DNA of 32,000 nt from Saccharolobus solfataricus (GCF_900079115.1 NZ_LT549890.1:1680001-1712000), one strand, 5' to 3'; shown: positions 13,362-19,919, counted from the first letter of the stretch. Numbers and translations are program-made. The notes: generated by a model not told the origin, from the sequence alone.

Positions 13362-13590
13362 ACGATCGAAACGACTAATTGTGAAAATTTCTAGCCTGAT
13401 TCAATTTTACTAATACTTTTCGAATAAGATGACTGCATGAGAACACTCCCTAATAAAAAGAGTTTATTTTAGCTAACTTATAATATGAAACATAGTTATT
13501 TATCATTATAAACTAAACTTTTGGTCTAAGATGACTTTTTAGGCTTTATGACAGTTAAAAAAAACTGGTTAGTACTATATACTTACTTGA

Positions 13591-14493
13591 GTGAAAATGT
13601 GGGTTGAACTAGATTTAAATCCTATACTCGATAAAGATCTTGATTTAAAGAGACAAGTTAAAGAAGAAATACAAAAGGAAAAAATAGATTCGACCATAAC
13701 TATAGATCTTATACGGTCACTGAATAAAGATATACTTGATGTAAACGCTCTTGGCCTAGAAGATAGAGATTATAATTTATATATATGGTCTCTCATAGAT
13801 TCATATTTTGTTACTGGAAATAATAAGTCGTATGAGCTAGTTAACGAATTGTTATCAAAGAGAAAAACATTACATTCATCTCTCTTTCAGTTAAAAGTAT
13901 ATGATATTACTAAAGACAAGTCAATCCTTACAAGCGTATCCGATACGATATTTAAATTAGATGAATATTGGGGAGAGGACTTATTGGCCTTAGCTAAATT
14001 ATCATATATAACGCAAGATCTCAAAATTGTTAAAAGATCTACGGAAATAATGCTAAATAAACTAGAGGAGATAGAGAGACAAGGTGGAATAAAAAGTGAA
14101 ATAGATGTGGAAATGGGTATGGGAGCACTAAAAGGGCTTTCTTTAATAAATATTAATTATAGTAAATATCCAGACATATTAGAGAAAATTAAATATTATG
14201 ATGATAAATATTTTGTCCCTATGTTTGAATTCATAGGTAATAAACCTAATATTCCAGAGTACTTGGATTCACTTCAAGTTATTCCAATGCTAGCCTCATC
14301 TAAAGAGTTCACTGTGTTTGCTGCTACAAAAGATATAAAGTATTTGAAAGGTACTATAAAATTATATAAATATTATCAAGAGTATTTAAATACTATAGGG
14401 ATTACTAAAACCTCGTTAAGGCAAAAATTGTGGGGATTGATTGCTCTTAGCAGAATAGTATATTTCATTGAAAAAGGAAAGATTTTAGATTAA
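13591..14493 (+). CDS. Hypothetical protein, 300 aa, predicted all-helical, very AT-rich gene
   Basis: Long ORF followed 16 bp later by a co-oriented membrane-protein gene. No recognisable catalytic motif. Confidence 0.6.
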   Translation: MKMWVELDLNPILDKDLDLKRQVKEEIQKEKIDSTITIDLIRSLNKDILDVNALGLEDRDYNLYIWSLIDSYFVTGNNKSYELVNELLSKRKTLHSSLFQLKVYDITKDKSILTSVSDTIFKLDEYWGEDLLALAKLSYITQDLKIVKRSTEIMLNKLEEIERQGGIKSEIDVEMGMGALKGLSLININYSKYPDILEKIKYYDDKYFVPMFEFIGNKPNIPEYLDSLQVIPMLASSKEFTVFAATKDIKYLKGTIKLYKYYQEYLNTIGITKTSLRQKLWGLIALSRIVYFIEKGKILD

Positions 14494-14509
14494 AGTACTG
14501 TAAACTAAT

Positions 14510-15634
14510 TTGGTGATACAAAAAATGAAAAGAACTGAAAGAGAAATTTATTTTTTATTGGTCTTAGTCTCAATTGCTTCATCACAACAATTTTACATTC
14601 CAGTATATTTCGAAAGAATATATGGTGATGCTGAACTGGCTTTCATACTTTTCACTATTGCAGTAGCGTTAAGAGCATTTTTAGCACCTTTCATAGCTCA
14701 AATATTAAAAAATTTTATTAAACTGAATATAATTGTAGCGTTCTCCTTCCAAAGTTTATTCTATATACTTCTATATTTAAAGATACCCATCAATTTTAAA
14801 CTAGCATTTATTTTAGGTGCATTTTACGGTATAGCATCTTCCCTAATTCTATTTCTTAATGCGGTTTACTTTTCATATTCTGAACCTACATTTAGTTCTA
14901 GATATAAAAGCGCCAACTTTTTCATATCCTCTAAATTTATCGGTTATACAATAGGAAGCACAATATCAGCCATCATACTTTTCTTCTATAACTTAGCAGA
15001 TATACTTATAATAGCTTCTATATTTTGGTTGTCTTCAATTCCGTTAGTTTTCACTCTAAACGTAGAGAAAACAGAAGTTAAGAAGCCAAGTCTAGGGAAA
15101 GTGAAAGAGTCTCTCTTCTTGGTTCCTCTACCTCTCCTTATATCATTTGTATTTAGTATGTCATTAGCGTCTGTAGGAGGAATAATTGAACCTTTAATTT
15201 TCAACAAGATTAATGCTGGTTGGTTTAGCATATCCTTTATCTTAGCTAATATTGCAAGTTCTCTAGTTCCCATTTATTTCCCTAAAAATAAAATAAAATT
15301 ATCCTTAGCATTAGGCACTTTTCTAGCAGTTATTACTGAATTTCTCTTTCCTTTAACTCCGTTCCTCTATCTTCTCATAATTTACGGAATATTATCTCAA
15401 GTAGGTAACTCGTTAGTGTGGCCAGTGGCAATAGGCAAGATAGTTTCTAAGTCTAAATTCCCAGTAGTAGAGAGTGGCGTTTTAATTACTTTAACTGATA
15501 TATCGTCCTTGATCGCTGATGGTTATGTTTCCTTATCCTTCCCCCTAATTAACGTTTTATCTCTTAGCCTATTCTCTATAATAGATTTATTTTCATGGTT
15601 ACCTCTGCTGTTAAGCAAAATAGATGTCCAATAG
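14510..15634 (+). CDS. Polytopic membrane protein (about 10-12 TM), MFS-like topology
   Basis: 374 aa, hydrophobic throughout with a central loop (VEKTEVKKPSLGKVKES) between two halves, as in MFS transporters. No clear MFS motif A. Confidence 0.55.
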   Translation: MVIQKMKRTEREIYFLLVLVSIASSQQFYIPVYFERIYGDAELAFILFTIAVALRAFLAPFIAQILKNFIKLNIIVAFSFQSLFYILLYLKIPINFKLAFILGAFYGIASSLILFLNAVYFSYSEPTFSSRYKSANFFISSKFIGYTIGSTISAIILFFYNLADILIIASIFWLSSIPLVFTLNVEKTEVKKPSLGKVKESLFLVPLPLLISFVFSMSLASVGGIIEPLIFNKINAGWFSISFILANIASSLVPIYFPKNKIKLSLALGTFLAVITEFLFPLTPFLYLLIIYGILSQVGNSLVWPVAIGKIVSKSKFPVVESGVLITLTDISSLIADGYVSLSFPLINVLSLSLFSIIDLFSWLPLLLSKIDVQ

Positions 15635-15697
15635 TTAGCTAAAAATAAACTAACTGCGTCACTATTGAGTTAAATACTCAGAGATTCATAAGTGTTG

Positions 15698-18677: not shown

Positions 18678-19510
18678 TCACCCAATGGATGATGTATGAA
18701 TTTTCCAAAAAATATTTCGCAAAACTGTTTATATAATATAGTATGAAGAATAAACAGATGGAAATACATGTCTACTACACCACTTGGTGCTGCATAATTC
18801 AATTCCTTTCCACCATATGCTATATTTAGAGCCATCCATTTTTTAAATTCTAACTCTATTCTTTTTACTATATTATTATCTAGTTTACCAAAATGTGCTA
18901 TTAATGGAAATCTTTGTTCCGGCACAAATTTAAACTCATCAATAGTATGAAGTAAATTTTCTGATATAGGTGATAGGTCTAATCTTTCAAGCATGAGTAC
19001 TCGATCTAAAGTCTTATCATCCAACGATTCTAAAGCCTTTTTAGGTAATATAGTTATTTCGTTTACATTATCAGGTTTTAAATTAAATCTTAATCTGAAA
19101 CTATTATCATCATTATTTAATAATTTCTTTAATAAAACATTATCATATCTAGGTATTCCCCAAACACTTTTGCTAAATTTTTCGTATTCCTTTGTATGAA
19201 GAATAAGAAAGTGCCAATATAGATCCACAGCGCCACTTGCAGTAAATAACCTTTTAGGGAAAACAATCGTTAATGCTACAAATCGCCTAAATTCTTTTTC
19301 AATCTTTTCAGCTAATTCTCTATCCGCTTTCCCATAATAAATTTTTATAGGCCAAACTTGTTCTGGAGAAAATCTGCGTCCTTTCCATATGAAATTTGAT
19401 GTAATATATGATAGATCATATGTGTCTAAAATTTCTAGCCTCTCTTTTACTTTATCTAATCTTTCTTCTGGAACATATTTACGTAATTTCTCATCATTAA
19501 TAATACTCAC
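18668..19510 (-). CDS. Internally duplicated protein with two GRDP/DUF1399-like (...VD.Y.H..ILHT..Y..F....G) modules
   Basis: aa 27-117 and 173-269 align with each other: LD..DLS.I..N, F.PEQ, IE.EF, SG.VD.Y.H..ILHT..Y..F. Confidence 0.6.
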   Translation of the reverse strand: MSIINDEKLRKYVPEERLDKVKERLEILDTYDLSYITSNFIWKGRRFSPEQVWPIKIYYGKADRELAEKIEKEFRRFVALTIVFPKRLFTASGAVDLYWHFLILHTKEYEKFSKSVWGIPRYDNVLLKKLLNNDDNSFRLRFNLKPDNVNEITILPKKALESLDDKTLDRVLMLERLDLSPISENLLHTIDEFKFVPEQRFPLIAHFGKLDNNIVKRIELEFKKWMALNIAYGGKELNYAAPSGVVDMYFHLFILHTILYKQFCEIFFGKFIHHPLGELF

Positions 19511-19545
19511 AAAATCACCTCTAGAAAAAAATATTTCTCAAAAAA

Positions 19546-19815
19546 TTATTCAAATGGATCTTTATACTCTTCTTCTGGATATTTCTTTTCGTCATAATCC
19601 ACAAATGCACCGCTATACGAATCCCCACATGTCATTGGAGTTTCTGGCCATATGCTAGTATCAATATTTCCAAAAATCTTTATATATAGTTCCCTAGTCT
19701 CTTTATATGCATCCCTAGCTATTGATCTTGTTCTACTATTTGCCGGTATGTGTTCTATTATTTTATATTCTTCGACTTTACTCATTTTCCCTCTAAATAT
19801 AGCTTTGCTAGGCAT
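19546..19815 (-). CDS. Small hypothetical protein (79-89 aa) with an acidic C-terminal tail
   Basis: The ORF lies 35 bp upstream of the duplicated-domain gene on the same strand. The C-terminus reads ...CGDSYSGAFVDYDEKKYPEEEYKDPFE. An alternative start is at M11. Confidence 0.5.
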   Translation of the reverse strand: MPSKAIFRGKMSKVEEYKIIEHIPANSRTRSIARDAYKETRELYIKIFGNIDTSIWPETPMTCGDSYSGAFVDYDEKKYPEEEYKDPFE

Positions 19816-19919
19816 TTTTTTTTAACTATCATAATACATTGAAACTTTTTAGAATAGCATTTTACATCTTTTTCCTTCTCTTAAACAGTTTCTTAATCTC
19901 ACCCAAAGACTAACTAATA

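Follow-up and report, generated by a model that had tools for sequence, protein, structure and literature searches.

The very AT-rich block at positions 13366-19830 of the 32,000-nt stretch of Saccharolobus solfataricus P2 DNA analyzed here (NZ_LT549890.1:1680001-1712000; the window, whose position 13591 corresponds to position 1601031 of AE006641.1) is composed of two independent cassettes that have come to lie side by side via insertion sequences (IS). Cassette A is a Sulfolobaceae-restricted orphan pair, a soluble α/α-type protein with a permease-like partner, while cassette B has an operon-like arrangement of a small protein, a tandem protein of Pfam family PF27765 and a transporter of the major facilitator superfamily (MFS). 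Across archaea and bacteria the small protein invariably accompanies the PF27765 core, fused to it in single-core and split from it in tandem-core forms, and efflux-type pumps of differing families adjoin this pair in three unrelated lineages (Sulfolobales, Ca. Berkiella and a Zetaproteobacterium). We put the probability of the whole explanation, in which both cassettes are mobile and B provides a split, possibly metal-dependent protein together with efflux of its putative product or substrate, at roughly one in two. Coordinates are collected in Table 1, and loci retrieved from other genomes and contigs carry numbers with the prefix L.

An invariable pairing of the small protein with the PF27765 core

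The second gene of cassette B encodes a 280-aa protein that an earlier reading of the window from its sequence alone (the sequence-only reading) had described as internally duplicated, and its two halves are indeed 35% identical (E 3e-21). Precomputed assignments place the P2 gene and all 48 homologues in PF27765 ('UCP032817-like'); hmmscan with our local Pfam, a copy older than that model, gave no PF27765 match for the P2 gene. PF27765 is a tiny, patchily distributed family of 48 proteins among 5.8 billion, present in 5 of 185,579 species genomes, with members in Sulfolobales, Thermoplasmata, Verrucomicrobiota (Limisphaerales, Spartobacteria), Zetaproteobacteria, Ca. Berkiella, Nitrospinaceae and Flavipsychrobacter. 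Between the Sulfolobales protein and the verrucomicrobial members identity still amounts to 44-47%. Each core repeat follows the motif FSPEQvWP..HFGKAD...E.EFkrFvAL...aPSGpVDMYWHFfiLHT.eY..FC..iWG.f.HHP, and residues E50, Q51, D63, E71, E73, D96, H100 and H105 are invariant in the core alignment (A1).

The small gene upstream of it probably starts at an internal ATG (Table 1), and the RefSeq versions of the protein are likewise 79 aa long. Its product is laid out as a DHxPA motif, a helical stretch, a WP motif, an invariant TCGDSYSG and an acidic tail ending in DPFE, with invariant residues H12, A15, R20, Y27, Y34, W46, T52, C53, G54, Y57 and S58 (alignment A5, 79-aa numbering). The C-terminal DPFE is common to the two Sulfolobales proteins and four of the bacterial small proteins. 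The gene has a dN/dS of 0.21.

The relationship between the two proteins is apparent from the single-core members of the family (about 220 aa, for example in Thermoplasmata), in which a C-terminal domain aligns with the whole small protein including TCGDSYSG. About half of the PF27765 family consists of such fusions of core and small protein. In bacterial tandem-core proteins a C-terminal tail of about 45 aa remains that is degenerate and has no TCGDSYSG motif, and a hidden Markov model of these tails matches residues 19-62 of the 89-aa protein with 34 bits. A flank search of the tandem-core loci located a separate small gene beside every tandem-core gene, either downstream (L002, L003, L008, L018), upstream as in Sulfolobales (L009, L015) or, at L019, 1.3 kb downstream of the core with an MFS gene in between. 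Among the loci retrieved via the core, all 13 have a TCGDSYSG small open reading frame (ORF) or domain adjacent or fused to it. The converse scan of metagenome contigs, with a 9-sequence alignment of the small protein as query, retrieved seven loci by the small-protein motifs alone, and in each of these a PF27765 core is adjacent or fused, which brings the loci with an adjacent or fused small protein to 20 of 20 examined. At the bacterial loci the small protein is also the more conserved of the two (63-73% identity as against 42-62% for the core).

Because of the fusions, the strict co-occurrence and the stronger conservation, a part or subunit split off from the tandem protein is a likelier identity for the small protein than a secreted factor or a typical precursor peptide. 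Of the secreted-factor, immunity or small-molecule efflux module that the sequence-only reading had envisaged, the secreted factor thus loses ground, while the efflux idea gains some weight from the recurrence of an exporter link outside Sulfolobales (below).

Profiles of the core found no characterized relative among PDB sequences, NCBIfam, PADLOC or PHROGs, and the predicted model of the 280-aa protein, which is helical (pLDDT 75.7), has no Foldseek match in PDB or BFVD at E≤0.001. The small protein has no match in Pfam, NCBIfam, PADLOC or PHROGs and nothing meaningful in PDB sequences by profile. The statement of the sequence-only reading that none of the soluble proteins is recognizable as a characterized enzyme therefore holds across Pfam, NCBIfam, PDB sequences, Foldseek, PADLOC and PHROGs. 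Pfam catalogs the family of the 280-aa protein as an entry without assigned function, and full-text literature searches for UCP032817, PF27765 and TCGDSYSG found no mention in the library covered; the small partner, the split or fused architecture and the recurring neighbors of PF27765 appear not to have been described before.

Some PF27765 members carry the NCBI/RefSeq label "glycine-rich domain-containing protein", a name suggesting that NCBI ties the family to the GRDP-like/DUF1399 domain of plant glycine-rich domain proteins. The core element D..WH..ILHT..Y..FC is one that we take to resemble the DUF1399 signature. Even so, 14 aligned members, five further relatives and a Vibrio protein (below) gave no match to PF07173 (DUF1399) at E≤10, the PF27765 proteins are without a glycine-rich region, and the Foldseek match of the core model to an Orpheovirus 'glycine-rich domain-containing protein' is non-significant (E 8.8). 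DUF1399 itself has no known biochemical activity (PMC4299439).

The Vibrio protein is encoded on plasmid pMA35 of Vibrio tritonius (NZ_CP152309.1 152194-152718; L030 4758-5282). This distant, membrane-anchored relative, a hypothetical protein of 174 aa whose N-terminal part includes a hydrophobic segment, carries the core motif VDLAWHEFILHTQHYSQFCKKAFGYFLHHSP, scores 47 bits against the PF27765-family profile, has no Pfam match and hints at a wider, unannotated superfamily.

Cassette B ends in an efflux-type transporter

The third gene of cassette B matches PF07690 MFS_1 over its C-terminal 265 aa (1.4e-19, 70.6 bits against a cut-off of 33.4), and the S. islandicus orthologue, to which it is 83% identical (dN/dS 0.24), and the P2 annotation likewise carry MFS_1. 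A simple hydropathy scan counts about 9-11 hydrophobic segments in the P2 protein, as against the twelve transmembrane helices, in two halves of six, of the superfamily; the protein contains the motif-A-like loop AGYLADSIGTKN (GxLxDxxGxK; canonical GxLxDrxGrk after TM2). The MFS_1 match and this loop are shared with the MFS drug/metabolite:H+ antiporters, unlike which the P2 copy has a non-canonical start. NCBIfam gives weak, sub-threshold matches to multidrug-type models and PHROGs gives phrog_2034, and together with MFS_1 these are all the matches that our scans of the five proteins against Pfam, NCBIfam, PADLOC and PHROGs produced; the profile of the protein had no match among PDB sequences, and no close characterized relative was found.

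As the sequence-only reading had noted, the MFS frame is open from 18677 and overlaps the end of the 280-aa gene, the overlap being 4 nt. A standard start codon is missing there, with no ATG, GTG or TTG before 18320, 117 codons downstream. At the start site (18668-18680, minus strand) P2 reads tctgaaag, with CTG, where S. islandicus reads cttgaaag, with a TTG overlapping the upstream TGA, and the P2 GenBank record annotates a 382-aa MFS protein from the CTG. Upstream, a 35-nt gap with a GGTGA motif precedes the GTG start of the 280-aa gene. The order of small gene, core and MFS gene and the overlap are kept in P2, S. islandicus and metagenome contig L028, and the cassette boundary falls directly after the MFS stop codon. 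In Sulfolobales cassette B is a conserved, operon-like unit of three genes.

Outside Sulfolobales tblastn with the P2 MFS protein finds no counterpart; Pfam scans of the neighboring genes reveal pumps of other families beside the pair in further lineages. In Ca. Berkiella the core, an MFS gene (MFS_3/MFS_1, 3e-36), the small protein and a GNAT acetyltransferase gene are tightly packed, and because this MFS protein is only distantly similar to that of P2 the exporters would have been recruited independently. In a Zetaproteobacterium the tandem core and the small protein are followed by a 446-aa MatE-like protein.

Two further kinds of neighbor recur. GNAT genes occur in the flanks of the module at L012-14, L019 and L021, with the fused form of the pair in L012-14 and L021, and threonyl-tRNA synthetase (ThrRS) genes adjoin it in six bacterial loci (Table 1), three of them co-directional with the module at gaps of about 100 nt. 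Between loci the ThrRS proteins share only 41% identity where the modules share 62-73%, so the adjacency is not simple shared ancestry. The full-length module-adjacent ThrRS proteins are without the N-terminal TGS domain and keep their zinc ligands, and the L029 copy begins at the catalytic core; with the ligands kept, zinc-sparing paralogues are ruled out. A search for ThrRS in the P2 window gave no match. TehB-like methyltransferase genes stand at L009 and L025, and the remaining loci have nothing suggestive among their neighbors. At L015, a metagenome contig, the module has a cytochrome P450 gene and two genes with polyprenyl-synthase domains around it (474-10771) and ThrRS downstream, in what looks like a terpenoid-type gene cluster.

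A possible mechanism and its competitors

In the mechanism that we favor, the small protein would be a detached C-terminal module that docks on a core domain via its DHxPA-helix-W segment, and it would bring its invariant TCGDSYSG loop to a functional site common to both proteins. A metal is considered because His, Cys, Glu and Asp residues are invariant: the loop and the invariant Glu, Asp and His of the core may together form a putative metal site. The target of the complex would be a small molecule or the loop itself, and the product or toxic substrate would be pumped out by the presumably co-transcribed MFS transporter, whose place a different MFS or MATE-like pump would take in other lineages.

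Several observations weigh against this mechanism. Given its CTG start, the P2 MFS protein may be weakly translated or inactive, and the direction of transport is taken from family resemblance only. The Sulfolobales tandem protein has two cores and only a single small partner. The MatE-like match of the Zetaproteobacterium reaches 22.8 bits, under the Pfam cut-off of 24.9, and at many loci, including most non-Sulfolobales ones, there is no transporter near the pair. Finally, the Vibrio plasmid protein has no small partner nearby.

An extended form of the mechanism, which we regard as unlikely though of wider consequence, makes the core and the TCGDSYSG protein an undescribed two-part system, spread horizontally between archaea and bacteria, in which the Cys/Tyr/Ser loop would give rise to a reactive or metal-binding center (a protein-derived cofactor or a peptide-derived product), a bioactive compound would be made, and the host would protect itself by efflux, GNAT or a dedicated ThrRS. 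If true, this would amount to a natural-product or antimetabolite pathway of a new class, invisible to current genome-mining tools.

The small protein might instead be a ribosomal precursor with an N-terminal leader and a TCGDSYSG core, which the PF27765 protein would modify and an MFS or MATE pump export, to yield for example a metal-binding, signaling or antibiotic peptide by analogy with the microcin C and methanobactin operons. The mcc (mccABCDEF) and mbn operons combine a small peptide gene, a modifying enzyme and an MFS or MATE exporter (with GNAT immunity in some cases), and methanobactin operons include a MATE exporter. Loci of the cassette B type have a comparable inventory, namely a small gene always beside an enzyme-like gene, a dedicated efflux pump beside or inside the pair in three lineages, one of them MATE-like, and GNAT in some lineages. 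Cys, Tyr and Ser fall within the invariant short motif, and the bacterial tandem tail retains the 'leader-like' part and not TCGDSYSG. However, in about half of the family the supposed precursor is joined to the C-terminus of the supposed enzyme, and its conservation exceeds that of the core, whereas typical precursors show the reverse; at 60-80 aa, highly conserved and often fused, it is not a free short precursor with a variable core region, and it is the C-terminal ends that vary. Neither in sequence nor in fold does the core resemble MccB, MbnB/C or any enzyme that acts on ribosomally synthesized and post-translationally modified peptides (RiPPs), and it has no match to any other characterized enzyme in Pfam, NCBIfam, PDB sequences or Foldseek; the loci contain no protease, no known RiPP enzyme class or RiPP recognition element and no leader cleavage motif. 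On balance we think a peptide-derived product quite improbable.

A similarly low probability attaches to the reading that the pair is a self-contained intracellular protein and the MFS gene merely happens to lie downstream of it in Sulfolobales. The MFS is a very common gene class, at most non-Sulfolobales loci the pair has no transporter beside it, and the P2 gene has CTG in place of a standard start codon. Against a chance association, the 4-nt overlap and the gene order are conserved in P2, S. islandicus and L028 while the flanks differ, the cassette ends right after the MFS stop, and two other lineages have independently placed an efflux-type pump inside or directly after the pair.

More doubtful still is that the pair makes or detoxifies a toxic antimetabolite that hits ThrRS or another target, with hosts varying their protection between MFS or MATE pumps, GNAT and a spare ThrRS. 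The ThrRS genes beside six bacterial modules, the flanking GNAT genes, the exporters of three lineages and the P450 and polyprenyl synthase genes around the L015 module can all be read in this way, and the ThrRS link is worth following because aminoacyl-tRNA synthetase and deacylase genes serve as markers of such pathways (PMC13149037). Yet the Sulfolobales copies have neither ThrRS nor GNAT nearby, the adjacent ThrRS proteins are ordinary apart from the missing TGS domain and may be housekeeping copies, and biosynthetic enzymes of any known class are lacking. As for anti-phage defense, none of the five proteins has a PADLOC match at E≤1.

If, as we favor, the two proteins work as one two-part protein linked to efflux, a family that has so far been only a database entry gains a concrete handle, with a defined partner, a set of invariant residues (H12, C53 and Y57 of the small protein; E71, D96, H100 and H105 of the core) and genetically tractable hosts, Saccharolobus and S. 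islandicus, for which genetic tools exist. The ThrRS, GNAT and exporter neighbors suggest a bioactive small molecule or a metal-related function, and a pathway of this sort would escape genome mining guided by known enzyme classes. Should the function prove mundane, the re-annotation would still be useful for its start codons, the split-gene relationship, the possibly crippled MFS start and the division into two cassettes.

Two cassettes rather than one cargo

The two cassettes are considered independent because each occurs without the other and in different surroundings. In S. shibatae and in a metagenome-assembled genome (MAG) of 'Acidianus hospitalis' the two genes of cassette A are adjacent, the trio of cassette B is absent and the surroundings differ from those in P2. 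Conversely, S. islandicus L.S.2.15 and contig L028 hold the three genes of cassette B in the same order with different flanks and the cassette A pair absent, so the conserved linkage of the trio that the sequence-only reading had proposed to look for is borne out (Table 1). In no other genome examined do A and B occur together, nor do they lie between 1218-bp IS copies of the kind that bracket the region in P2.

Compared with the 280-aa protein of P2, identity is 99% for Sulfolobus sp. S-194, 91% for Acidianus brierleyi and 87-89% for S. islandicus strains, far above what proteins of different genera usually show. Cassette B in S. islandicus and cassette A in S. shibatae are each more AT-rich than the local flanks. 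Near-identity across genera and an AT-rich composition in every host examined fit horizontally moved DNA, and both cassettes appear to move horizontally within Sulfolobaceae. Among viral contigs, phage records and plasmids no relatives of either cassette were found except the distant Vibrio plasmid protein.

The view that everything between the direct IS copies (13368-21952) moves and works as one system, as the cargo of a single composite transposon, draws on the two 1218-bp copies bracketing the region in direct orientation (96% identity over the 300 nt compared) and on the distinct composition of the interior, but it is largely refuted by the comparative data, since every other genome examined has the cassettes separately and not flanked by these copies, no target-site duplication is seen at any 1218-bp IS end or around the whole unit, and the interior contains further IS elements of different types, leaving it a very slim chance. 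The lack of an obvious target-site duplication at the 1218-bp copies suggests past recombination between them. Activity of IS in S. solfataricus P2, in a region as IS-dense as the one that holds both cassettes, can thus make unrelated accessory cassettes resemble one island.

Beside cassette A in S. shibatae (L005/L006 11502-13546) lies a further pair of a soluble protein and an MFS transporter (285 and 384 aa). As a relative of the trio it is ruled out, its sequence being unrelated to either P2 cassette, and two-gene units of a soluble protein plus a transporter may be common accessory cargo in variable regions of Sulfolobaceae.

Cassette A encodes an orphan pair

The first protein of cassette A probably has 298 aa, as its orthologues begin at MWVELD. 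It has 4 homologues in a word-indexed set of 5.8 billion sequences, and an exhaustive phmmer search of 1.84 billion representatives returned 2 matches, both close relatives. Its predicted structure is all-helical, with a pLDDT of 76 in only one of five models from a shallow alignment of 4 near-identical sequences. The best Foldseek matches are weak and are (α/α)6-barrels (E 0.035-0.15, TM-score 0.38-0.48, identity 9-12%), cellobiose 2-epimerase being at the top (E 0.035). Foldseek gives these matches to (α/α)6-barrel enzymes (cellobiose 2-epimerase/AGE, GH127) a probability of 0.98-0.99, although such enzymes exceed the 298-aa protein by about 100 residues, and we tentatively regard the predicted fold as α/α-toroid-like. 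The gene has a dN/dS of 0.12-0.16.

The partner probably starts at an internal ATG, giving 369 aa with about 10-12 hydrophobic segments, and has no match in Pfam, NCBIfam or PDB sequences. A borderline hhalign match to a small MFS alignment (probability 46%, E 2e-4, collinear over 192 columns) makes it possibly a very divergent MFS protein. Its gene has a dN/dS of 0.11-0.17.

Composition, mobile elements and other features of the window

The five ORFs listed by the sequence-only reading are present at its coordinates, with products corrected to 298, 369 and 79 aa for three of them from orthologues and RefSeq, and with dN/dS values of 0.11-0.24 against orthologues, indicative of purifying selection, all five are considered real genes under selection. 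They also lie in the most AT-rich DNA of the window, that reading having described the block as more AT-rich than its flanks: their GC content is 0.26-0.34 and GC at third codon positions 0.15-0.27, as against 0.35-0.39 and 0.26-0.43 for eight neighboring non-IS genes, and all 1-kb windows below 30% GC in the whole 32 kb start at 13251-14001 or 17251-18501, inside or overlapping the block.

Table 1. Coordinates of the features discussed, numbered along the window except where a locus is named
Feature	Position	Strand or orientation	Remarks
1218-bp IS copy 1	12150-13367	+	Left border of the AT-rich region; repeat search
Cassette A block	13451-15645	+	About 84% nucleotide identity in S. shibatae and 'Acidianus hospitalis' MAG; flanks differ (blastn)
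Soluble all-helical protein gene (A)	13591-14493	+	ORF of 300 aa from GTG; probable start ATG 13597, giving 298 aa
Polytopic membrane protein gene (A)	14510-15634	+	ORF of 374 aa; probable start ATG 14525, giving 369 aa
IS110-family transposase gene, split	15859-16892	-	Two ORFs, 16892-16155 and 16158-15859 (245 and 99 aa)
MITE-like repeat	17345-17517		Directly downstream of the MFS stop codon; further copies at 2457-2628 and 31686-31858
Cassette B block	17520-19868	-	87-91% nucleotide identity in S. islandicus L.S.2.15 and metagenome contig L028
MFS transporter gene (B)	17523-18671	-	382 codons from CTG 18671; Pfam MFS_1
Tandem two-core PF27765 protein gene (B)	18668-19510	-	280 aa; GTG start preceded by GGTGA
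Small partner protein gene (B)	19546-19815	-	ORF of 89 aa; probable start ATG 19785, giving 79 aa
DDE_Tnp_1 transposase gene	20207-21334	+	Pfam 2.5e-18; GC 0.49; right-hand neighbor of cassette B
1218-bp IS copy 2	21953-23170	Direct, relative to copy 1	Repeat search
1218-bp IS copy 3	26614-27834	Inverted	Repeat search
ThrRS genes beside the module	L002 9414-11393; L003 9244-11106; L008 3189-5027; L015 11259-end; L024 768-end; L029 1958-end		Six bacterial loci

Between the cassettes, Pfam domains and repeat matches place an IS110-type element and a miniature inverted-repeat transposable element (MITE), again in agreement with the sequence-only reading. The two transposase ORFs (GC 0.446) overlap by 4 nt, and PF01548 DEDD_Tnp_IS110 (7.4e-21) and PF02371 Transposase_20 (5.3e-17) match across them, so that this IS110 copy is probably frameshifted and inactive. 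Within the window the MITE matches 2463-2620 and 31692-31848, and a further copy is found in S. islandicus (L001 1020-1184, 87%). The second IS110 remnant that had been placed to the right of 19830 was not found: tblastn with the IS110 transposase gives no match there, the neighbor being the DDE_Tnp_1 gene, which has no IS110 similarity, and ORFs at 21370-21985 have no Pfam match.

Scans of the window for tRNA genes and Rfam families found nothing. A partial fourth match to the 1218-bp IS lies at 8187-8490, and adjoining the second copy is a 319-aa ORF (23897-24856, minus strand) whose GC of about 60%, in an otherwise 35% GC genome, suggests one more gene of foreign or transposase type. At 16-237, within a coding region, direct repeats of 42/63-nt period encode a repeated coiled-coil segment of the QEEVKRQGEAIVSLQ type. 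Finally, 204-657 has a diverged inverted copy at 5045-5498 (80%), which suggests paralogous genes on opposite strands.

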